Below are positions 2,355 to 21,939 of a stretch of 31,404 nt of DNA, in pieces; position 1 is the stretch's first letter; the number at the start of each line of letters is the position of its first letter. The DNA is taken from positions 1 through 31,404 of the forward strand of contig JBHLSH010000046.1 of assembly GCA_048881705.1 (NCBI GenBank). The letters run 5' to 3'. The notes under the pieces are model-generated. The model was given only the letters and a program-made list of their open reading frames with translations, did not search any database and was not told where the DNA came from. The position numbers and the translations under genes are program-made. This DNA comes from Candidatus Heimdallarchaeota archaeon. GTDB taxonomy: Archaea > Asgardarchaeota > Heimdallarchaeia > Hodarchaeales > Hodarchaeaceae.

Positions 2355-4472
2355 TTAAGGCTTTTTTCCGTTTTCGATGGGTTCCATACTGAGATCAGTT
2401 TGAAGAGAGGCTTTTATCCCTTTCGTTATTCTTCTAACAATCATAGATTGGCTTGGTAATGCGTATCCACATAGAGGGCACCGTTCCTGCCTTGTTAGCT
2501 CTTCAACAGAGCTGAAATCAAGATTACAGGCCGAACAGGTAAATGGGAATGCTTGTACCACGTCTGAACAGTTTGGACATCCAGTACGACCAACATTCTG
2601 TAAATCCACGTAATCAGAGATACAGATGTACCTCTTACATTCATGGCACTGAAAATAGCGTGGTTCTGCAATTTCGGTTAAACAAACCTGACAGGTTACA
2701 TTTTTTGGAGGGAGAGGGGAGAGGAGAAGCATTTGCGAACGGATGACGAGGCTTTTATTTGCAAAGATTTCCTTCTCGATTGTTGCTTTGGCAAATTTCG
2801 GGATTTCCAGTGGTTTTTTTTCAATAGTATCGGCCAGTTGTTCGATTGGGATGGCCTTACCGCGTTTTAAGTCCGATATCCAAGTTGCAGATCCAATAGA
2901 AAGGCTTCCACGCAGCGATTTTCCAACGGCAGAAAGTTTCTTCCCTATTCGCGGCATATAGCGTATAACCGTGTAACCTACGCCCAAAAGTATACTCAAG
3001 GCCACGAGTGAAGTTAGGATCTGAATTGGTGGATTAGATGCCATATCATTAGGGTTTGTTCCCCAAAGGATTTCGATATTGTCGTTCCATCCGTCATCAT
3101 CGCTGTCCGGATCATGTGGATTAGTTGAAGATTGAAATTCCTGAAGATTGGTCAGTCCATCATTATCGGGATCATCATTTGAGTCCTGCAGACTCCCATT
3201 TAGACCATTCTCATATTCATAGCCGTCAGGCAGGAGATCCGAATCGCTATCTGTTCTAGAAGGAGATGTACCGAATTGATATTCTAGGAAATTAGGTAAT
3301 TGATCATTGTCTGGATCTTCCATTCTGTCTAATGGATCTCCTGGGAATAGCCCATTTGCCTGTTCCCACAGATTAGGCATTCCGTCTGAATCCAGATCAG
3401 TAATATTCCACAATCTTACAGTACTATCAGCTGATGCCGATGCAAGAACATTGCCTGTCGGGTTAAAAGAAATGCTCAAAACGGATGATTCGTGTCCAGT
3501 TAGATTTCCAATCAGCTCACCTTTTGACAGAGAAGGAGCGGGATACGTGTCCCAAAACAAGAGACTCCGATCACTCCCTCCTGATGCCAAAAGCATGCCA
3601 TCTGGACTGAAATCTACGGTTCTAACCCAATCTGTATGGGAGGTTAAGTTTAGGACGAGCTCCCCTGTATCCACGTCGTTCAGATGAACACCGTGGTCAA
3701 AAGAACCGGATGCCAGTACTGATTCCTGGGGGTGAAAAACAATGCTTGTCACGCTATCTGAATGATCCTCAATCGTATGAACTGGCTTTTGATTCGAAAT
3801 ATTCCACAAAATGACTGAACTGTCGTATGATCCGGAGGCAAGGAGATCCGATGAACCGAAAGCAACAGTTCTGACTGAATCAGTATGTCCAGTGATGTTT
3901 GCAATGGTTTCTCCTGATTGAATGTCCCAAATCTTGATGTTATTATCGCTTGAGCCCGAAGCTAAAAGAGTTCCCTCAGAATTGAACGAAAGGCTCCATA
4001 CTGAAGCTGTGTGGCCGGTAAGATTTCCTATAATTTGACCCGAGGAGACGTTCCATAGCAATATTGACCGATCAAATGAACCAGAAGCCAGTAATTCCCC
4101 TGAAGGATTAAATGCCAGGCAATAGACTGAGGACGTGTGGCCTATTAGGTTGTGGACAAGTGATCCTGTACTCGTATTCCAAAGTTTAACTGTGTTATCA
4201 GCAGACCCAGAAGCAATCATCTTTCCATCTGGGTGGAAATCAACGCTCCAAATTGCCGAAGAATGGCCGGGCAGAGTACGAATCAATTTGGAATTGGGAT
4301 CGATGATCACGAGGGGAGCAACCTTTCCTTCCCTCCCAATTTTTCCTCCTCCGAAACTAGAATCTGTTAAAGTGACCGTATTACCATTAATTATTATATC
4401 TGGAGCAATTAAGGTAATCATAATACCGAAACAAATCATTGGGACTAAAAACTCCCTTTTCCGCACTTTCAC
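2355..4472 (-). CDS. Single-pass membrane protein: signal peptide, 7 WD40 repeats, 5 DxDxDG (thrombospondin type 3-like) repeats, TM helix, winged-helix-like segment, RING-like and zinc-ribbon Cys motifs
   Basis: Hydrophobic N-terminus (FLVPMICFGIMITLIA). Seven GH...SGSxD..xLWN/D repeats. DLDSDG, DPDNDQ, DSDSDL, DPDNDG and DSDDDG motifs. TM helix IQILTSLVALSILLGVGYTVI. C-terminal CQVC..CHEC..C..D..CPNC plus CSAC..CPLC. Confidence 0.9.
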   Translation of the reverse strand: MKVRKREFLVPMICFGIMITLIAPDIIINGNTVTLTDSSFGGGKIGREGKVAPLVIIDPNSKLIRTLPGHSSAIWSVDFHPDGKMIASGSADNTVKLWNTSTGSLVHNLIGHTSSVYCLAFNPSGELLASGSFDRSILLWNVSSGQIIGNLTGHTASVWSLSFNSEGTLLASGSSDNNIKIWDIQSGETIANITGHTDSVRTVAFGSSDLLASGSYDSSVILWNISNQKPVHTIEDHSDSVTSIVFHPQESVLASGSFDHGVHLNDVDTGELVLNLTSHTDWVRTVDFSPDGMLLASGGSDRSLLFWDTYPAPSLSKGELIGNLTGHESSVLSISFNPTGNVLASASADSTVRLWNITDLDSDGMPNLWEQANGLFPGDPLDRMEDPDNDQLPNFLEYQFGTSPSRTDSDSDLLPDGYEYENGLNGSLQDSNDDPDNDGLTNLQEFQSSTNPHDPDSDDDGWNDNIEILWGTNPNDMASNPPIQILTSLVALSILLGVGYTVIRYMPRIGKKLSAVGKSLRGSLSIGSATWISDLKRGKAIPIEQLADTIEKKPLEIPKFAKATIEKEIFANKSLVIRSQMLLLSPLPPKNVTCQVCLTEIAEPRYFQCHECKRYICISDYVDLQNVGRTGCPNCSDVVQAFPFTCSACNLDFSSVEELTRQERCPLCGYALPSQSMIVRRITKGIKASLQTDLSMEPIENGKKP

Positions 4473-4731: not shown

Positions 4732-5430
4732 TCAATTTTTGGAATATCTGACAGAGCGCTCTATCATACGTTTCTGACTGGTTTTCCTATCTCGTTTAAC
4801 ATTCTCTTGATGAATATAATTTGAAATTATCTCTCGTGCAAGAAAGAGAAAAGCGTCATCTACATTAATGTTTTCCTTAGCAGATGTTTCTATATACTTC
4901 ACGGAAAACCCAAACTTGCGTTTAGTGAACTTAGTTACTTCTTCAGCATAGGTTTTCCCATGTTTTGAGGCAACCTGTGATGGAAACGCAGGACTCTCAC
5001 GCAAATCGACTTTGGCCCCAACGATTATGAATGGTTTCTTCCCATGTCCATTCAAGGACCAAAAGGCCTTTATCCATTCCACCAGATTCTGATAGGATTC
5101 TGGATTGGTAATATCGAAGAAACACAGAGCCCCCATCGCCCCACGGTAATAGAGATCCCGTACTGCCTTAAACCGGGGCTGTCCTGCTAAATCCCAGATT
5201 TGGAATTTCAATTGGTAGGATCGTTTCGATTCAGAATGATAGACCGACATCTCTTTTGAGGCAAAATCGGCACCGATGGTCATAAGGTACTCTGTTTTGA
5301 ATCCTTCGCCCAGCCACGCCCTCCGTAGAGCAGTCTTTCCGACTCCACCGTCACCTATAAGTACGATTTTTGCTCGAAGCTTTGTATCTGCCATTAATTG
5401 TGCGCGAATCGAAGAGGTATCCTTTTGCAC
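4732..5430 (-). CDS. Rab-like small GTPase (Ras superfamily)
   Basis: GDGGVGKT (G1), TIGADF (G2/RabF1), KFQIWDLAGQ (RabF2/G3), RFKAV and YYRGA (RabF3/4), GAKVD (G4 variant), ETSAK (G5). No C-terminal cysteine. Confidence 0.93.
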   Translation of the reverse strand: MQKDTSSIRAQLMADTKLRAKIVLIGDGGVGKTALRRAWLGEGFKTEYLMTIGADFASKEMSVYHSESKRSYQLKFQIWDLAGQPRFKAVRDLYYRGAMGALCFFDITNPESYQNLVEWIKAFWSLNGHGKKPFIIVGAKVDLRESPAFPSQVASKHGKTYAEEVTKFTKRKFGFSVKYIETSAKENINVDDAFLFLAREIISNYIHQENVKRDRKTSQKRMIERSVRYSKN

Positions 5431-14982: not shown

Positions 14983-15996
14983 GTGATAAGCGTGTCACAC
15001 TATTTGAAACAATTGAAAACTAGCGCAAGTCGTAAGATTATTCTTTTGGGGCTTTCCCAAGCAGGTAAAACATCAATTCGGGATGTTGTGTTTGGGGGGA
15101 AAAACCCAGAAGAAACACAGAACTACTCAGCTACCTTGAACTACGAGCGACAAATTGAGCAGGTGGCCGATGAACCTGTTACGGTGATGGATCTGGGAGG
15201 CCAAGAGGTTTTTCTTAAACGATTTTTGAGTAGCATGAGCTCTTTTATATTTAGTAACGTTGCTGTGTTGGTTTTTATCTGTGACATCAGTACTCCAGAT
15301 AAATTTCCCGCAAGCTTAAAGGCCTTCGTTGAAGGGGTATCTAGATTAGAAGAAATGTCAGACGTACAGCCCGCAGTGTACATTTTACTCCATAAAACGG
15401 ATCTACTTCCCGATCTAACACAAAGAGCAGAAAGAATGGAGTTCTTGATGGAAATGTTTCAAGACGCTGTAGTTACGAAGAATATTACGTTTCTCCAGAC
15501 CTCAATTTACGATAACTCAATTCATGAAGCATTTAAACGAATTACTGCTGAAGCAAGTGAAATTATTCCAGAAGCAGAGGAGATTGAAGAAGAGGCAGAT
15601 TTAGAAGCGATACAACGCCGCCTTAGGCTACGCCCTATCCAGCAAGTGTTACACACGGTCAAGTTCATGAATCGCTTGGATGAAGTACTCTTAATCTCCT
15701 CGGAAGATCCAGAATTTCTTGTTCAGGGATCGGATGCCCAATTAGAAGAAATTCGTCGACTCCTAGAGATTATGGAAAAAGCTAACGAAAAAACTCTGAA
15801 AGCTGGCTCGAATACGGAGTTAAAACGAGTTGGAAACGCCATGGTATTTAAGTTTAAGGTGAAACCTCACTATTTACTCCTCCTTCTTGGTACTGACCAA
15901 AAATCAATGCTCGAAACTAGATCTTTAGTGGATATTGAAGAAACTGTCAAGCTGGTATCCAATCAACTGGAAGGTATGCTCCAACCTGTGGCATAA
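14983..15996 (+). CDS. Rag/Gtr-like GTPase with C-terminal roadblock/longin-like domain
   Basis: GLSQAGKT (G1), ATLNYER, DLGGQ (G3), LHKTD (G4) and QTSIYD (G5). An acidic linker EAEEIEEEADLE precedes the C-terminal alpha/beta domain. GTG start. Confidence 0.9.
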   Translation: MISVSHYLKQLKTSASRKIILLGLSQAGKTSIRDVVFGGKNPEETQNYSATLNYERQIEQVADEPVTVMDLGGQEVFLKRFLSSMSSFIFSNVAVLVFICDISTPDKFPASLKAFVEGVSRLEEMSDVQPAVYILLHKTDLLPDLTQRAERMEFLMEMFQDAVVTKNITFLQTSIYDNSIHEAFKRITAEASEIIPEAEEIEEEADLEAIQRRLRLRPIQQVLHTVKFMNRLDEVLLISSEDPEFLVQGSDAQLEEIRRLLEIMEKANEKTLKAGSNTELKRVGNAMVFKFKVKPHYLLLLLGTDQKSMLETRSLVDIEETVKLVSNQLEGMLQPVA

Positions 15997-16094
15997 ACAT
16001 CTTCGTTGGATTTCAAATACAAGAAGCACTCTGGTTGGGGTATAATCTTGCATAAAATCCTCATTGACGCTTTATCGAGCTTAAATACGCTTCT

Positions 16095-17039
16095 ATGTAC
16101 AACGGGGGCATAAAATTGAAAAGAAATTTAATCGCGGTCGCTGGTTTATCTCACTCAGGGAAGGATCTCCTCTTTAACCAATTGATGAAATTAGGAAAAA
16201 CTGAACCCGACCTTGGAATAAGAGAGAATGTTTACTACTATGATCTAATAACAACTTCTGCTAGAAAGAGGGATGAAGACTCATATGTTAACGCCATTCT
16301 TCCCACGCTAGAGCATAAAGTTTTAATGAAAACAGGTGCACTAATTTACATTCATGACATAACCTACCAGAGGCTGGATGACACAGCCGCGGATTTTCAA
16401 GAGATAACAAAAAATATCACAGATAAAGGAAACCATGATTTTCAGGTACTGTTAATCCTAAACCGAGGCCATCTTATAACAAATGAAGCAGAACGGCAGA
16501 AACTTAAAGATGCCCTATTACGTCAGTTACACAATATTTATCCGAAAGAAATCTCAACGTACATCGTTAGTCTTAAGGGAACTGATGAACAGCGGATAAC
16601 GAATCTCGTTTTTACCCAGATCATCCGAAAGACCAATGAAAAGAAAGGCTTGATTGACATCGAAGACAAGATCAAACTTGATGATAAAAAGTTCCGTAAG
16701 ATAATTAACGAGAAAATGGAAGGCCTTGGATTTTCTGGTGCCTACATATTGTCACGTAACAATTACAAGCTCTTGGCTGCCGCAGGAAAAACGCCTTCTT
16801 GGGAAGAAAATGTAGGCCCTCAAATAGTTCGTTTCCTTGCGGCCAATGAAGTGTTCGAATTTCCTCCGGAGCCAAAAATTAACATCCAACGAATGGAAGA
16901 TTTCTTAAATATTTCGATCATACTTCCACCTGACCGAATTCTGGTGCTTATTGGTAAACTGTCTCGGTTTAAACTAGGTACAATGTCCTATCCAGAAGCA
17001 GAAAAGGTATGTATGGAATTCGTGGAAGCGCTTCAATGA
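16095..17039 (+). CDS. Degenerate small-GTPase-fold protein with C-terminal roadblock-like domain
   Basis: IAVAGLSHSGKD (G1 with D at the S/T position). No DxxG motif. LILNRGH stands at the G4 position, and ALIYIHD matches the beta-4 strand. The C-terminal GFSGAYILSR..KLLAAAG...RILVLIG segment is roadblock-like. The start may be the TTG at 16116. Confidence 0.75.
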   Translation: MYNGGIKLKRNLIAVAGLSHSGKDLLFNQLMKLGKTEPDLGIRENVYYYDLITTSARKRDEDSYVNAILPTLEHKVLMKTGALIYIHDITYQRLDDTAADFQEITKNITDKGNHDFQVLLILNRGHLITNEAERQKLKDALLRQLHNIYPKEISTYIVSLKGTDEQRITNLVFTQIIRKTNEKKGLIDIEDKIKLDDKKFRKIINEKMEGLGFSGAYILSRNNYKLLAAAGKTPSWEENVGPQIVRFLAANEVFEFPPEPKINIQRMEDFLNISIILPPDRILVLIGKLSRFKLGTMSYPEAEKVCMEFVEALQ

Positions 17040-17057
17040 AGCCAGGAGACAACAAGA

Positions 17058-17858
17058 ATGATTAAAGGACTAGTAGTCACAACGATGACAGACATGGGGC
17101 CATTTCCTCTTTTGAACTTATCTGAGCTGCCAGAAGACACAACCGTAAAGTTATCAGTAATAGGCATGACGATCCTTTCCATGGGAGCCGGGACAGTTGC
17201 GGAGAAACAACACTATCGTCTTCACGGTTCGATCCCCGTTCCGGACACACCGACCTTGGAAGCTCTTGCCATGTCCTTCACTGTTATCCCTACTGATACA
17301 AAGGATATTCGGATCGACCAACACGGAAGGGAGTCCACTATCTGGCTATTATTTGATTCAAAAATGCGTGACGAAATTTTTCAGCGACATAGCACAATAG
17401 AAGCAACCCTGAAAACAGAGGCAGTAGGAATCCGTGAAGAAAACGTTTTATCAAATCCTACGATTATGAACCGTGTTTTAAGTCGCATTCAGGATGTATC
17501 TCAGAGTACAGAGATTATAGAACCTGTTCCTCATGAAAAAGAACCATTATATCTGCCAGGTAAGGGGGGACTCGAATTTTTTCATGTAAATAATCAGGGA
17601 GAGTTATTAGAACTACCGATTGACGGAAATTTAACCCAATATCCCATCTTGATCATTTGTAACCTCGTAATCAAACGTATAATCTTGTTGAAGATGACTG
17701 AAGATGTCTCTCAACGACAGTTCTTTCTTGCAAGCAAACATGCATCTAACTTAAACTCGTCTCGATTCAAGAATTCAATGGAGATCAGAGATGTTCAAGA
17801 TCCTTTGGAGCGAGAGATGATCCTGGAGAAGCTTGGGGTAATCTTAGAGACTGTCTAG
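17058..17858 (+). CDS. Two-domain protein: putative N-terminal longin/uDENN-like domain plus C-terminal gelsolin-like domain
   Basis: N-terminus IKGLVVTTMTDMGPFP...HGSIPVP...ALAMSF...WLLFD. C-terminus FFHVNNQGELLEL..ILIICNLVIKRIILLK...SQRQFFLASKHASNLN. AGGAG site upstream. The CDS is solid; the domain calls are pattern recognition. Confidence 0.7.
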   Translation: MIKGLVVTTMTDMGPFPLLNLSELPEDTTVKLSVIGMTILSMGAGTVAEKQHYRLHGSIPVPDTPTLEALAMSFTVIPTDTKDIRIDQHGRESTIWLLFDSKMRDEIFQRHSTIEATLKTEAVGIREENVLSNPTIMNRVLSRIQDVSQSTEIIEPVPHEKEPLYLPGKGGLEFFHVNNQGELLELPIDGNLTQYPILIICNLVIKRIILLKMTEDVSQRQFFLASKHASNLNSSRFKNSMEIRDVQDPLEREMILEKLGVILETV

Positions 17859-17893
17859 TAATTTCAAGAACAATTAGCAGTGAGTGCGAACAA

Positions 17894-18823
17894 ATGTCTT
17901 ATCTTACAAGGAAAAAGTCTTCCAAAGTCCTTATCTTAGGTTTGGCGGAAAGCGGTAAATCGACCATAATTCGGGTTGTGACTGAAGGCAAAATTCCATC
18001 CAAAGATGAACCTTATCACGCGACCATAGATTATGAAAGAAAACAAAAGACTATTGCTGGTACAGAACTTACAATATTTGATTTAGGGGGCCAAACTGCG
18101 TTCCTGGATCGATTCACAGGTGAGCTTTCCGAATTTATCTTTAGCGGAGTTAAGGCTCTCGTATTCGTGGTTGACTCCATCAAAATTCCAGATATTTCCA
18201 GAGCTAAATATTATTTGGATTTATCTATAAAGAAACTTTCTGAATATAGTCCCTCTGCATCCGTCTTTCTTTTCCAACATAAATCAGATCTAGTCCCAAA
18301 GCATCTGAAAGGGGAAGTTCGGAAAACAATATCTGATTATCTTTCTGCAGGGATAAAACAATCAGTACGTTATTACGAAACTTCTGTTTTTTCAGACACA
18401 ATTTTTCGCGCAATGGGTGATGTTTACTCAGAGGCTTCGGGCGCCCGCAAAACGTTAAGACCATTATTAGAGACTTTTATTCATCACAACGATGCAGACA
18501 TGGCCCAGATATTTACCAAGGAAGGGGCACCCCTGACACGGGTAGAAAATGTATCTCGGTTTGATCACATATCCCTTTCGGAAGTAAAACAGTTTTTCGA
18601 TGCGGTAGCCCAGCGCCTATCTAATTCTGAAACCCAAAGTTCCAATTCCATCTTATTAGAAGCGGATCGCCATGTTTTCGTCATTCGATTTTTAGAGAAT
18701 TCCTTGGCCCTGTTTTTTGGATTTCCGAAAGAGAGATTGAAAGAGAAAAACGAGCCTATCGCATCCCTATACAATAAAGTATTGGCGTTTTCATCGCAGT
18801 TAAAGTCGATTACAGAGGGTTGA
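17894..18823 (+). CDS. Rag/Gtr-like GTPase with C-terminal roadblock/longin-like domain
   Basis: GLAESGKS (G1), ATIDYER, IFDLGGQ (G3), QHKSD (G4) and YETSVF (G5). C-terminal ADMAQIFTKEGAPL...HVFVIRF..ALFFGF. Confidence 0.9.
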   Translation: MSYLTRKKSSKVLILGLAESGKSTIIRVVTEGKIPSKDEPYHATIDYERKQKTIAGTELTIFDLGGQTAFLDRFTGELSEFIFSGVKALVFVVDSIKIPDISRAKYYLDLSIKKLSEYSPSASVFLFQHKSDLVPKHLKGEVRKTISDYLSAGIKQSVRYYETSVFSDTIFRAMGDVYSEASGARKTLRPLLETFIHHNDADMAQIFTKEGAPLTRVENVSRFDHISLSEVKQFFDAVAQRLSNSETQSSNSILLEADRHVFVIRFLENSLALFFGFPKERLKEKNEPIASLYNKVLAFSSQLKSITEG

Positions 18824-18885
18824 ATTGGACTAGATCTTCTTTATGTTCTCGTTAACTAGTCATTTTAAGTATGTCATAGGAAATT

Positions 18886-20103
18886 ATGACAGATTCTCTC
18901 TTTTGGAATAAGACTATGTTTAACAATTCAATGAATCATTGGATATTCTCACAAATCGATGGCCTGGTTTCTCAGTATTTTACCGTAACCTCAGTGAGTT
19001 ATAGAGCTCTAGGTCCGCAAAACCAGCCTTTTCCAGTCCAAGCTATACCCTCATACGAAGTCCTTCGCAGAAGTGACCTATCCGCAAACATGGAAGCTGT
19101 CAGCTCACAACTTCAGAAAATAGGCTACGTTCCCATCCTACGTTCTCATCCAACCGAGAAATCCCGTGGAGTTCTCTATATTTTTCCTCACTCTGATAGC
19201 CGGGTTACGAAGGGACAAAATTGGAGGACTCCTTTAATCCTGTTCGTTTTGACAATTTTATCAGTGTTTTTTGTGGGTCTAATGCTCTGGAACTTTCTCC
19301 GTCAGGTTAACCCCAATTCAGGGCCCATCGAAACTGGCTTATTCTACACGGTAGGATTAATCGGCATTGTGGGAATCCATGAACTAGGACATATGGTTGC
19401 ATCTCGTCTGCACGGAATTAAGGCTAGCTTCCCCTACTTTCTCCCTATCCCATTTGGCTACGGGACTTTCGGAGCTTTCATTACCCAAAAAACTCCGACA
19501 AAATCTCGTAATGATTTGTTTGATGTGGGTTTAGCGGGGCCACTTTTTGGTTTCGTACCCGCGCTAATCTTCTCAATATTAGGTTTGCTTCTATCAACTG
19601 TGGTTCCATTAACAGAGGTACCAATTCAGCTTCTGGAGGATCCACTAGCAGTTGATTTCAGGCTATTTAGCGATTCTCGCTTTCGAATTCTCTTATTTGA
19701 ATTATTGGCCTTTTTAATTCTTCCAGTTTCGCAAAACGGAGTAGAAATCTTTCTGAACCCCTTAGCGATTGCAGGATATATAGGTTTTCTTCTAACTGGC
19801 CTGAATCTTATCCCAATCGGGCAGTTGGATGGAGGCCATGTCGCACGAGCCCTTTTTGATGAACGTCACCATAAAACCTTGACATATATATCTGCAGGAT
19901 TTATGGTCATACTGGGATTCTGGTTTTTTGCTCTCCTTATTATCATGTTTTATTCACAAACGGGGCATGCTGGTCCACTTGATGATGTTTCTAAGGTTAG
20001 TTTAGGCCGCAAAGTTATAGCGATTCTATCGATAGGTTTAGCTATCCTTTGTCTACCTATTCCTTCAGAGCTTTTTCAGATAGTGTTCCCCTTCTTAGGT
20101 TAG
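18886..20103 (+). CDS. Site-2 protease (peptidase M50) intramembrane zinc metalloprotease
   Basis: IHELGH (HExxH), GTFGAFI, DVGLAGPLFG and NLIPIGQLDGGH, with multiple TM segments and a soluble N-terminal domain. Confidence 0.95.
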   Translation: MTDSLFWNKTMFNNSMNHWIFSQIDGLVSQYFTVTSVSYRALGPQNQPFPVQAIPSYEVLRRSDLSANMEAVSSQLQKIGYVPILRSHPTEKSRGVLYIFPHSDSRVTKGQNWRTPLILFVLTILSVFFVGLMLWNFLRQVNPNSGPIETGLFYTVGLIGIVGIHELGHMVASRLHGIKASFPYFLPIPFGYGTFGAFITQKTPTKSRNDLFDVGLAGPLFGFVPALIFSILGLLLSTVVPLTEVPIQLLEDPLAVDFRLFSDSRFRILLFELLAFLILPVSQNGVEIFLNPLAIAGYIGFLLTGLNLIPIGQLDGGHVARALFDERHHKTLTYISAGFMVILGFWFFALLIIMFYSQTGHAGPLDDVSKVSLGRKVIAILSIGLAILCLPIPSELFQIVFPFLG

Positions 20104-20145: not shown

Positions 20146-21939
20146 CTATTCAAGGGTGTAGTAGTACTCCCCTAATTCTTTTTGCCGTTTATCCATCTTA
20201 GAACCCTCCTTATTGATTCTCGCGCGCCCAGTCTCAGGATCTCGGCGAAATGTTATTCCCAAGTGTTTTAAGAATCGATTCATACCCACTCTTTTGGACA
20301 TCGGAGCAATCATTTCTCCATAAGACCCAGGTTTTCCCTCAAAAATCATGACACGATCAGCAGTAAAATCCGCCAGTTGAATATCGTGCTCTATTGTCAT
20401 TACTGAACAGGTAGGATCCCGTTTCGTTTGATTTCGAATCACAGAAGCGATTTTTGTTCTTTCTAATGCATCTAAAAATGCAGATGGTTCATCTAGGATA
20501 TATAACTTTGCATCTCGGGCAAGACATGCAGCAATAAATACCCGTTGCGTTTCTCCCCCTGATAACTCTCTCATTTTCCTTTCCATAAAGTGATTGATAC
20601 CCAATGGATCGAGCAGCTGCAATTTCCAGCTTTTAGTATTGAGAAACTTTCCCGTAACTTCCTGAAGAAATCTTTGTACGGTGACATCAAATTCCTTTGT
20701 GATCTGTTGCGGTTTATAGCTAATAGTTGCTGCCATCTCGATGTCATGATGCGGAATCTTACCGGCCAGCAAATTAGCAAACGTGGTTTTTCCTAATCCA
20801 TTCTCTCCGAGGATAACTAGTATCTCGCCCTGATAAATATTTCCGGGGGTAACATCCAACGAGAACCCGTTTAGCTTGATTTGTGCTTCGGGCCAATCTA
20901 GTTTCATCCGATCCTTCCAAAGTCGCTCTTTAACGGATCTTTTAAAGGTAATAACACGTCGACGAAAATGAATGTTTTCTTCCCGAAGCCACCCCGTTAA
21001 GAACGAATTCAGCCCTTTTTTTACAGATAATGCCCTGGAAATCACCCCATAGACATGCGGTGAGCCCCAACAAATATTTATATGGTCGGACCAGTAGTCC
21101 AAAACGGAGATATCGTGTTCAACAACAGCAATGGCTCTAGAGTCATTGAGTTTGGTCTTAAGAGCGCGAACTAGTTTTAGCCGTTGTTGGATATCGAGAT
21201 ATGTTGCAGGTTCATCCAGAAGATAGACATCCGCGGGTTGAAGCAGGGTTAAAGCAATCGCAATGCGTTGAAGCTCACCTCCACTTGCAACGGAGCTAGA
21301 TTTGTCAAGAATAGGGCGGAGTTGAAGCAAATCTATGATCTTTTTATCCTCAATGGGAAGATTACTCATTAAGGAACGGAGTGTTTCATTTTTATCTTTG
21401 AGGAAGGTTAAATCCTGTTTTTTGAACGCAACGGTCACTTCACCCGAATTTACCTTTTCCAGAAAACGCGACATTCCAGGGATTCGTAGGGTGGTGAGAA
21501 ATTCTTGATATGCATCTGAAGTGAATTTCCCCCCGTTGGGCTGCAATTTTCCAGCAAGTATGTCAAGGAGTGTTGACTTGCCTACACCATTCTCCCCTAT
21601 GATTCCAATTATGTTGTTAAGATTTAGAGCGGGCAATCCGAAAAGACGAAATTGAGATTCGCGGTATTGGTGTGTAGGTACCCATGTATCCATTTCACCC
21701 GGAATGTTCACCGATTTAATCGCTCTAACATAGCAGGCATTGACGCAAATTCCGCAATTAATACAGGTCTTCGGATCTATTGTAGGAATGGCTGACTTTT
21801 TTCGTAATTTGATGGCTCTAGGAACAATAATAGGTTTACTTTTCTTTCCAGTCATGTTTACGGGGCATAAATTGATGCAACGGTAATTACAGGGCCCTGG
21901 TGCACATATGTCCCGAAAAACGACCGTAACTTGCTCCAT
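20146..21939 (-). CDS. rli: ABCE1/RLI ribosome recycling ATPase
   Basis: N-terminal Fe-S Cys motifs (CAPGPCNYRCINLCPVN, CINCGICVNAC). Two NBDs (GENGVGKST/SGGELQ/LLDEP/EHD and GENGLGKTT/LSGGETQ/LDEP/EHD). Conserved C-terminus TFRRDPETGRARINK...GEYYY. Confidence 0.95.
   Translation of the reverse strand: MEQVTVVFRDICAPGPCNYRCINLCPVNMTGKKSKPIIVPRAIKLRKKSAIPTIDPKTCINCGICVNACYVRAIKSVNIPGEMDTWVPTHQYRESQFRLFGLPALNLNNIIGIIGENGVGKSTLLDILAGKLQPNGGKFTSDAYQEFLTTLRIPGMSRFLEKVNSGEVTVAFKKQDLTFLKDKNETLRSLMSNLPIEDKKIIDLLQLRPILDKSSSVASGGELQRIAIALTLLQPADVYLLDEPATYLDIQQRLKLVRALKTKLNDSRAIAVVEHDISVLDYWSDHINICWGSPHVYGVISRALSVKKGLNSFLTGWLREENIHFRRRVITFKRSVKERLWKDRMKLDWPEAQIKLNGFSLDVTPGNIYQGEILVILGENGLGKTTFANLLAGKIPHHDIEMAATISYKPQQITKEFDVTVQRFLQEVTGKFLNTKSWKLQLLDPLGINHFMERKMRELSGGETQRVFIAACLARDAKLYILDEPSAFLDALERTKIASVIRNQTKRDPTCSVMTIEHDIQLADFTADRVMIFEGKPGSYGEMIAPMSKRVGMNRFLKHLGITFRRDPETGRARINKEGSKMDKRQKELGEYYYTLE

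Follow-up and report, generated by a model that had tools for sequence, protein, structure and literature searches.

A stretch of 31,404 nucleotides from Candidatus Heimdallarchaeota archaeon (contig JBHLSH010000046.1 of assembly GCA_048881705.1, the window analysed here) encodes a receptor-like protein whose C-terminal tail carries a conserved module of winged helix, RING-variant and zinc ribbon, a family for which no Pfam model exists. The gene occupies positions 2355..4472 of the minus strand and consists of one intact open reading frame (ORF) of 705 codons plus stop with a GTG start, as judged from the ORF list, the translation and eight full-length orthologues; a first-pass annotation of the same DNA had correctly placed a gene here but had not given its strand. 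The product is probably a bitopic cell-surface protein of this Asgard archaeon, composed of a signal peptide or anchor, a WD40 propeller, a TSP3-like stalk, a transmembrane (TM) helix and a cytoplasmic tail. The orthologues share 42-82% identity with it and are found in public Asgard metagenome-assembled genomes (MAGs) labelled by their submitters as Thorarchaeota or Hodarchaeales/Hodarchaeota, and within the phylum as sampled its GTDB genus has seven other genomes, with full-length matches in six of them. The database gene call (P0002) is only 694 aa long and begins at M12. Since the 82%-identical orthologue retains the N-terminus MK.RKREF and has a Leu at position 12, the 705-aa version with the GTG start is more likely to represent the correct start.

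A hydropathy scan locates two hydrophobic segments, at aa 8-28 and aa 483-503. The first is preceded by the basic n-region KVRKRE, with which it forms a putative signal peptide or N-terminal membrane anchor (aa 1-28, 4389..4472; minus strand, as are all features of the protein), and it recurs in the orthologues and in paralogous receptors. The second reaches a hydropathy maximum of 2.2 and is the predicted TM helix (2964..3026), followed by the basic cluster R504, R508, K511 and K512, in agreement with the single TM helix and trailing basic residues noted at first. A Pro directly follows the sole plausible A-site for signal cleavage and the N-terminal segment may therefore persist as an uncleaved anchor; the propeller would probably lie outside whether this segment is cleaved or not. 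The N-terminal flank carries a charge of about +4 and the flank after the TM helix is basic, while the flanks towards the middle segment are acidic or neutral, a pattern which, under the positive-inside rule, fits a topology with both termini inside and the loop outside. The layout of N-terminal hydrophobic segment, ectodomain, TM helix and tail recurs in other proteins that share this tail, and the ectodomains of the paralogous receptors are of surface types, including NosD-like beta-helix, leucine-rich repeat (LRR), NHL, LVIVD, SBBP propellers with TSP3 repeats, and DUF11. The charge pattern and the extracellular-type ectodomains of the paralogous receptors both support the external location of the propeller, for which a topology check had been suggested.

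The ectodomain itself starts with a seven-bladed WD40 beta-propeller that is predicted to be extracellular (aa 60-357, 3402..4295). Pfam WD40 (PF00400) matches seven stretches in this region with 255.5 bits, which bears out the earlier count of exactly seven repeats, and the region also matches the WDR3-type propeller model Beta-prop_WDR3_1st (E=1.5e-107). The propeller is followed by a probable Ca-binding stalk of five acidic, TSP3-like repeats (aa 359-470, 3063..3398) whose DxDxD motifs start at aa 359, 386, 408, 434 and 454 in a motif scan. These repeats had been described as being of the DxDxDG type; all five motifs are present, but only some of them have the Gly in the sixth position. The match of PF18884 (TSP3_bac) to the acidic repeats scores 14.5 bits and stays under its cut-off of 25, and an NCBIfam scan returns TSP3-type matches far below threshold (CglD/MtsD TSP3 regions, E=2e-6 to 9e-4) and nothing else. 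The orthologues have more copies of the acidic repeat than this protein, and in a paralogous receptor (P0032) TSP3_bac is matched with E=5e-12 in the same juxtamembrane place.

The first-pass annotation had counted nine N-x-S/T sequons, all N-terminal to the TM helix, and had taken their placement as a sign of an extracellular, glycosylated sensor. The count is wrong, as the protein has 12 sequons of which nine precede the TM helix and three follow it (N572, N591 and N634), the last of these being invariant as part of the CPNCS zinc knuckle. The ectodomain is rich in Asn, Ser and Thr, and its nine sequons are what this composition predicts: composition-matched shuffles have a mean of 7.2, and a fraction of 0.28 have at least nine. 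Three sequons (N141, N150 and N356) are kept in 8/8 orthologues, yet they coincide with consensus positions of the WD40 repeat; N323 is another conserved sequon. This makes a case for glycosylation weak, and sequon enrichment was rejected as a sign of glycosylation on the strength of the shuffle test; the placement argument fails as well, with three sequons in the tail. The absence of enrichment would fit a reversed topology, or a protein that does not span the membrane, with the propeller in the cytoplasm and the hydrophobic segments buried or peripheral. WD40 propellers are overwhelmingly intracellular, which also counts in favour of such an arrangement. It is nonetheless very improbable, given two strongly hydrophobic segments whose outer flanks carry charge in keeping with the positive-inside rule, the acidic Ca-type repeats that are typical of extracellular proteins, the clearly extracellular module types at the same position in family members, and the need of the Cys-rich zinc domains for a reducing cytoplasm.

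The tail beyond the TM helix was modelled with AlphaFold 2 from a 62-sequence alignment (pLDDT 91.5; 89.1 for a model of the module only). It begins with a predicted winged helix of the PCI/UFL1-like type (aa 529-586, 2715..2888; a1-b1-a2-a3-b2-b3), modelled with a pLDDT of 95-98, which encloses the stretch originally described as resembling a helix-turn-helix. VIA finds weak matches for this domain (Z 2.6-3.2) to ScpB, NiaR, Rpn12-PCI and the winged helices of UFL1/DDRGK1. Pfam PCI does not match this protein but does match the aligned winged helix in a soluble paralogue encoded on contig C72 of the same genome (E=4e-5) and in other members. Taken by itself, the winged helix yields nothing meaningful in a profile search of solved-structure sequences and only a weak hhalign match to the soluble paralogues (probability 8.6%).

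The winged helix is followed by a C4C4-type RING-variant domain with a predicted cross-brace (aa 592-637, 2562..2699) and a zinc ribbon that would form the third zinc site (aa 643-672, 2457..2546), the latter assigned from Cys conservation, DZR similarity and the model. The pattern of Cys residues reported earlier is exact, with C594-x2-C597-x11-C609-x2-C612-x4-C617-x2-D620-x11-C632-x2-C635 in the RING-variant and C646-x2-C649-x15-C665-x2-C668 in the ribbon. Ligand conservation was counted over 67 full-length modules from 62 proteins. The eight RING ligands are invariant in 8/8 orthologues, and the ribbon Cys residues are conserved in 66-67 of the 67 modules. The second ligand (position 597) is Cys, Asp or His in 65/67, and position 620 is His in 27, Cys in 22 and Asp in 18, with no other residue allowed, while the remaining ligand columns are 85-100% Cys. 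D620 is taken to be a true metal ligand because its column holds only these three residues, and the Asp in ligand position 6, which had seemed to make the ligand set atypical, follows the rule of the family. The ligand set had been described as having no His; a His is present in this region, H610, but it is not conserved. The tail is thus predicted from its sequence to provide 12 ligands and therefore three zinc sites, in which 594/597 would pair with 617/620, 609/612 with 632/635, and 646/649 with 665/668.

In the model, aa 592-637 adopt the beta-beta-alpha core of a RING and aa 643-672 a ribbon with beta-hairpins. Foldseek superposes RING1B on aa 589-645 at 2.0-2.4 Å over 44-58 residues (probability 0.99-1.00), and RING1B, TRIM21 and c-Cbl taken together at 2.0-3.6 Å over the same length (0.95-1.00); other fold neighbours are the p62 ZZ domain, RNF4, Listerin, Slx1, Nse1 and the p44 RING. 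Nearly all of the best 50 VIA matches for the module are RING, ZZ or U-box domains, with Z no higher than 4.7. An ESM Atlas feature search with the tail gives scores of 0.75, under the useful range, and structural rows that name RING families with TM-scores below 0.5. The question whether the Cys region folds as a cross-brace RING or as ribbons, which had been put forward as a check, can be answered in that the first eight ligands are modelled as a cross-brace of the RING/ZZ type and only the last four as a ribbon. The model makes a cross-brace treble-clef pair a well supported fold class for the finger.

A profile of the family searched against the sequences of solved structures matches the CesA RING-type zinc domain best (E=2e-6), followed by the p44 C4C4 RING, RING1B, RNF4, TRIM proteins and CNOT4. 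None of the Pfam or NCBIfam models reaches its threshold on the three-zinc module, with DZR (22.5 bits vs 27.3), zf-UDP and Prok-RING matching below it. The four-residue gap between ligands 4 and 5 is that of C4C4 variants, as opposed to the usual 2-3. This gap and the aromatic-x-C before ligand 3 are features which we take to resemble the ZZ consensus, and they raise the possibility that the domain built on the first eight ligands is of the ZZ type and reads the N-terminus or a short peptide of a cytoplasmic partner, akin to N-degron or SUMO/histone-tail readers, which would not engage an E2 enzyme. Such a reader is also suggested by the ZZ domains of Nbr1 (Z 4.7, 2.2 Å over 47 residues), p62, KCMF1, ADA2, HERC2, BIG and PRT1, which score level with RINGs, and by a weak Pfam ZZ_ADA2 match. 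ZZ domains, however, end in H-x3-H or H-x-H, whereas ligands 7 and 8 form here a C-P-x-C knuckle as in RINGs, and the profile matches among solved-structure sequences are RINGs and not ZZ domains. A ZZ-type reader is therefore improbable: structure leaves the choice between RING and ZZ unsettled and sequence favours RING.

An exhaustive HMMER search finds the tail module in 58 representative clusters, where it is placed behind many kinds of ectodomain including WD40, NHL, LVIVD, beta-helix and LRR, and all named members of the family come from Asgard MAGs. A search of the literature returned no description of the receptor-type family, of this architecture or of the three-zinc module, although this does not prove that none exists. 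Four metagenomic members of 864-1236 aa (P0036, P0031, P0027 and P0037) contain two or three modules in tandem, and for most of them several TM helices are predicted; the cluster to which P0031 belongs includes proteins from MAGs that carry the labels Promethearchaeota, Hodarchaeota and Hermodarchaeota. In the present genome the module profile picks up many more ORFs, at 11 further loci on contigs C92, C1, C43, C48 (two loci), C137, C8, C133, C136 and C52 and as a second copy on C72, which match only the first ~50 profile positions, corresponding to the RING part (E=1e-10 to 1e-6). The C4C4-type finger seems to be expanded in this genome, separately from the matches to zf-RING_2.

The genome also encodes the ubiquitin system that a ligase would depend on and that the first-pass annotation had wanted searched for, with four E2 loci of the UQ_con family, three ubiquitin-like loci, five ThiF loci and several RING matches. 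The genes form three clusters of ubiquitin, E1 and E2 on contigs C15, C57 and C72, and each ubiquitin-like gene adjoins a ThiF E1 gene. One E2, on C15, is UbcH5-like with HxN, a catalytic Cys and a WSPA loop, and the ubiquitin-like protein of C72 has a free GG end (IKGG). The second-best match to the module in this genome is the soluble 588-aa protein on C72, which combines a PCI-type winged helix with one full module and one RING-only copy; other soluble members have UFL1-like tandem winged helices. Its gene is co-directional with a 131-aa ORF, the E1 gene, the ubiquitin-like gene and a 263-aa ORF, with a UQ_con E2 downstream and Band_7 and EAP30 (ESCRT-II-like) genes upstream. The order in the cluster is EAP30/Vps36-like, Band_7, 588-aa protein, 131-aa ORF, ThiF E1, ubiquitin-like, 263-aa ORF, TPR and UQ_con E2 (L033:2755-12393). 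The 588-aa protein occupies the place where an E3 would be expected.

Independent metagenomes contribute four more members of the soluble subfamily, which share 28-47% identity with the C72 protein and all adjoin JAB, UQ_con and ThiF genes, and three of the four loci also carry ORFs the size of ubiquitin-like genes, Band_7 and EAP30, so that soluble paralogues are found within ubiquitin gene clusters in 5/5 loci examined. Elsewhere, the gene of a soluble protein with UFL1-like and module parts has as its neighbour a gene whose 796-aa product combines CARDB, TRAP-beta, DUF11 and adaptin-C2-like Ig domains and is possibly a trafficking-type surface protein (L038:507-2897, on contig C134 of genome G070). 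When eight membrane tails were aligned by hhalign with seven soluble proteins, the winged helix and RING of the tails matched the C-terminal PCI-type winged helix and RING of the soluble proteins with 97.6% probability (E=3.9e-12). The two sets share no sequences and the comparison is not circular; an earlier, partly circular comparison was set aside.

A different use of the winged helix is conceivable, in which the protein is a membrane-tethered regulator whose tail is freed by cleavage within the membrane, for instance through the M50 site-2 protease whose gene lies at a distance of 14 kb (18886-20103 in the window); the freed tail would then attach to nucleic acid through its winged helix and zinc fingers. 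The weak fold matches to the DNA-binding winged helices of NiaR, PurR and ScpB would fit this model, as would the presence of the protease gene. By sequence, however, the winged helix appears to group with the PCI/UFL1-type winged helices for protein interaction in the paralogues, the same module is found in soluble proteins of ubiquitin clusters, and the M50 gene belongs to a separate string of Rag-GTPase genes and is not found close to the orthologues at either of the Hodarchaeales-type loci that were examined, two in number. Release of the tail as a regulator is accordingly quite improbable.

The positions through which RINGs contact E2 enzymes, which we take from the c-Cbl/BRCA1 RING consensus and not from the structure of a complex, can be mapped onto the module. 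Position 596 within the C-x-h-C is Leu, Ile, Val or Met in 61/67 modules, position 624, four residues after ligand 6, is Leu or Ile in 47/67, and the Pro of the C-P-x-C (position 633) is present in 46/67. The linchpin Arg or Lys after ligand 8 is absent, position 636 being Ser, Asp, Gly or Asn with Lys in only 3/67. Some active RINGs are likewise devoid of the linchpin residue. The protein had been proposed to be a ligand-sensing membrane E3 or a zinc-finger signalling receptor, and this is partly supported: the architecture, the RING-type fold and the ubiquitin system speak for it and the glycosylation argument has fallen away. It gains new support from the homology of the winged helix and RING to soluble proteins encoded inside clusters of ubiquitin, E1, E2 and JAB genes. 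As far as it could be tested, the finger is not made up of non-RING ribbons, a ubiquitin system is present and the propeller is not placed in the cytoplasm, three points on which the first-pass annotation had made its proposal depend. Both the overall architecture and a RING-superfamily fold for the tail have good support, and a function as a membrane-anchored ubiquitin E3 or E2-docking receptor is a reasonable but tentative reading to which somewhat less than an even chance may be given.

Several findings weigh against an E3 or E2-docking function. Only the soluble, paralogous subfamily is linked to ubiquitin genes, and four of its five loci are syntenic and not independent, and no ubiquitin-system genes are found near the receptor gene or near the loci of membrane orthologues that were examined. 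The Pfam RING models remain under threshold (zf-RING_2 17.4 bits vs 27.3; zf-C3HC4 13.4 vs 21), and the structural scores are all weak, with Foldseek E values of at least 2.5e-3 and the low Z values given above, as would be expected with a core of ~55 residues. To these are added the level structural ranking of ZZ domains, the missing linchpin, and the location outside and the signal peptide, which are read from hydropathy and charge rules only. The best sequence matches, finally, are to C4C4 RING variants, the CesA N-terminal zinc domain and TFIIH p44, neither of which is known to be a ligase. The same matches, together with the missing linchpin, the structural RINGs of SEA and GATOR2 among the fold matches and the membrane forms without adjoining ubiquitin genes at the loci examined, suggest the main rival, which keeps the layout and topology but makes the three-zinc finger a scaffold without catalytic function, a zinc-stabilised module for protein-protein interaction or oligomerisation like the RINGs of plant CesA, TFIIH p44 and GATOR2/SEA. 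Its role would be to cluster the receptor or to dock a partner in the cytoplasm, and it would recruit no E2. Against this stand the soluble paralogues, which take the E3 slot of ubiquitin gene clusters in all five loci, and the three hydrophobic E2-contact positions, which are kept although column identity in the family is otherwise only ~23-35%. A purely structural role is a serious contender but a doubtful one.

If the protein does function in ubiquitylation, the propeller and stalk would face outward and bind an extracellular or envelope ligand, and the RING-type finger would recruit a charged E2 from one of the three ubiquitin-like systems of the genome. Anchored in the membrane, the protein would serve as an E3 or as a subunit that docks E2, with itself or neighbouring membrane proteins as the target and the winged helix as a possible protein-protein adaptor, and its targets might be passed on to ESCRT or to the proteasome. 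In eukaryotes, ubiquitylation and ESCRT sorting are the means by which surface receptors are controlled, and Asgard archaea have genes for ubiquitin, E1, E2 and ESCRT; to our knowledge, no membrane target and no membrane-bound ligase has been reported for them. It may be speculated that Asgard receptors with interchangeable ectodomains share the winged helix-RING-ribbon unit as a ligase module and so link extracellular events to the ubiquitylation of membrane proteins and their ESCRT-dependent sorting. This wider proposal is unlikely as it stands, but if true it would describe a forerunner, among prokaryotes, of the way in which eukaryotes ubiquitylate and down-regulate receptors. The family provides concrete candidates, with a receptor-like build and a cytoplasmic module homologous to proteins of ubiquitin-ESCRT clusters, and with a defined tail, four E2s and three ubiquitin-like proteins all supplied by one genome, it becomes testable whether receptor ubiquitylation predates eukaryotes. 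It also defines a three-zinc module that lacks a Pfam family and explains a seemingly aberrant Asp as one of three allowed ligands.

Directly downstream of the receptor gene lies a divergent pair of Gtr1/RagA-like GTPase genes (3-1187, minus; 1380-2321, plus), and 260 nt upstream a co-directional Ras-family GTPase gene (4732-5430, minus; Pfam Ras E=2e-41), the position of which is kept in the 82%-identical relative only. The Gtr1/RagA-like pair is also seen in this syntenic relative (L019), where the second gene encodes 739 aa. Since the GTPase neighbourhood is kept there but not at the two more distant orthologue loci examined, the neighbouring Rag and Ras GTPase genes are not conserved partners of the receptor. 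Further along the window are two more Gtr1/RagA-like GTPase genes, two ORFs without Pfam matches and the M50 site-2 protease gene (14983-20103, plus), followed by a housekeeping ABCE1/Rli1-like gene with two Fer4 motifs and two ABC domains (20146-21939, minus).

The finger has its closest counterparts in the C4C4 RING variants of CNOT4, the C-terminal RING of TFIIH p44/Ssl1 and the N-terminal zinc domain of CesA (Pfam zf-UDP, PDB 1weo/8vi0), which have the same cross-brace fold and share with it the spacing C-x2-C, ~11, C-x2-C, 4, C-x2-C, ~11, C-x2-C. Five of the 62 tails match zf-UDP, below threshold. Unlike these variants, the finger has His, Cys or Asp as ligand 6 (Asp in this protein), is fused directly to a ribbon and comes after a winged helix and a TM helix; among these relatives CNOT4 alone is a proven E3. 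TRAF6, RNF125 and RAG1 resemble the tail in that the RING is directly followed by a small zinc finger, and they are top Foldseek matches over 81-115 columns, but the root-mean-square deviation over both domains is 10-14 Å, only the RING superposes and the contexts are unrelated. In GATOR2 and SEA (WDR24, WDR59, Mios; Sea2-4) a WD40 propeller is combined with a C-terminal RING in proteins that act on Rag GTPases, which is reminiscent of a gene for a propeller and a RING-type domain lying between Rag-like and Ras-like GTPase genes, and SEA/GATOR2 RINGs are weak fold matches of the module. Here, however, there is no alpha-solenoid and the TM helix splits the propeller from the RING; a GATOR2/SEA-type reading was rejected on account of this helix and of a GTPase neighbourhood found only in the syntenic 82%-identical relative.

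In its single-pass layout, with the ectodomain outside and a RING-type finger inside, the protein corresponds to RNF43/ZNRF3, Goliath/GRAIL and plant RMR, ectodomain-TM-RING ligases of the kind exemplified in PMC12552968. The comparison with RNF43/ZNRF3 drawn at the outset stands as an analogy of layout but does not extend to the ectodomain or the type of finger: those proteins have a PA ectodomain and a RING-H2 with His and neither extra ribbon nor winged helix, in contrast to WD40 and TSP3-like repeats and a finger without conserved His, and no sequence relationship to them was detected. The UFL1-like E3 and RING E3 proteins of Asgard ubiquitin-ESCRT clusters are the other point of reference. 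Asgard E3 proteins have been identified by the UFL1 signature IPR018611 (PMC9192718; bioRxiv 10.1101/2023.07.25.550441; Liu et al. 10.1101/2020.10.19.343400), which Hatano et al. used when counting the 'E3' in these clusters (PMC9192718), and the available portions of these sources describe neither the three-zinc module nor receptor-type fusions. The present protein differs from the UFL1-like E3s in being membrane-bound, in its large ectodomain and in being encoded away from ubiquitin clusters, but the soluble paralogues of its tail carry winged helices of the PCI/UFL1 type and reside in the same clusters of JAB, E2, ubiquitin, E1 and EAP30 genes.

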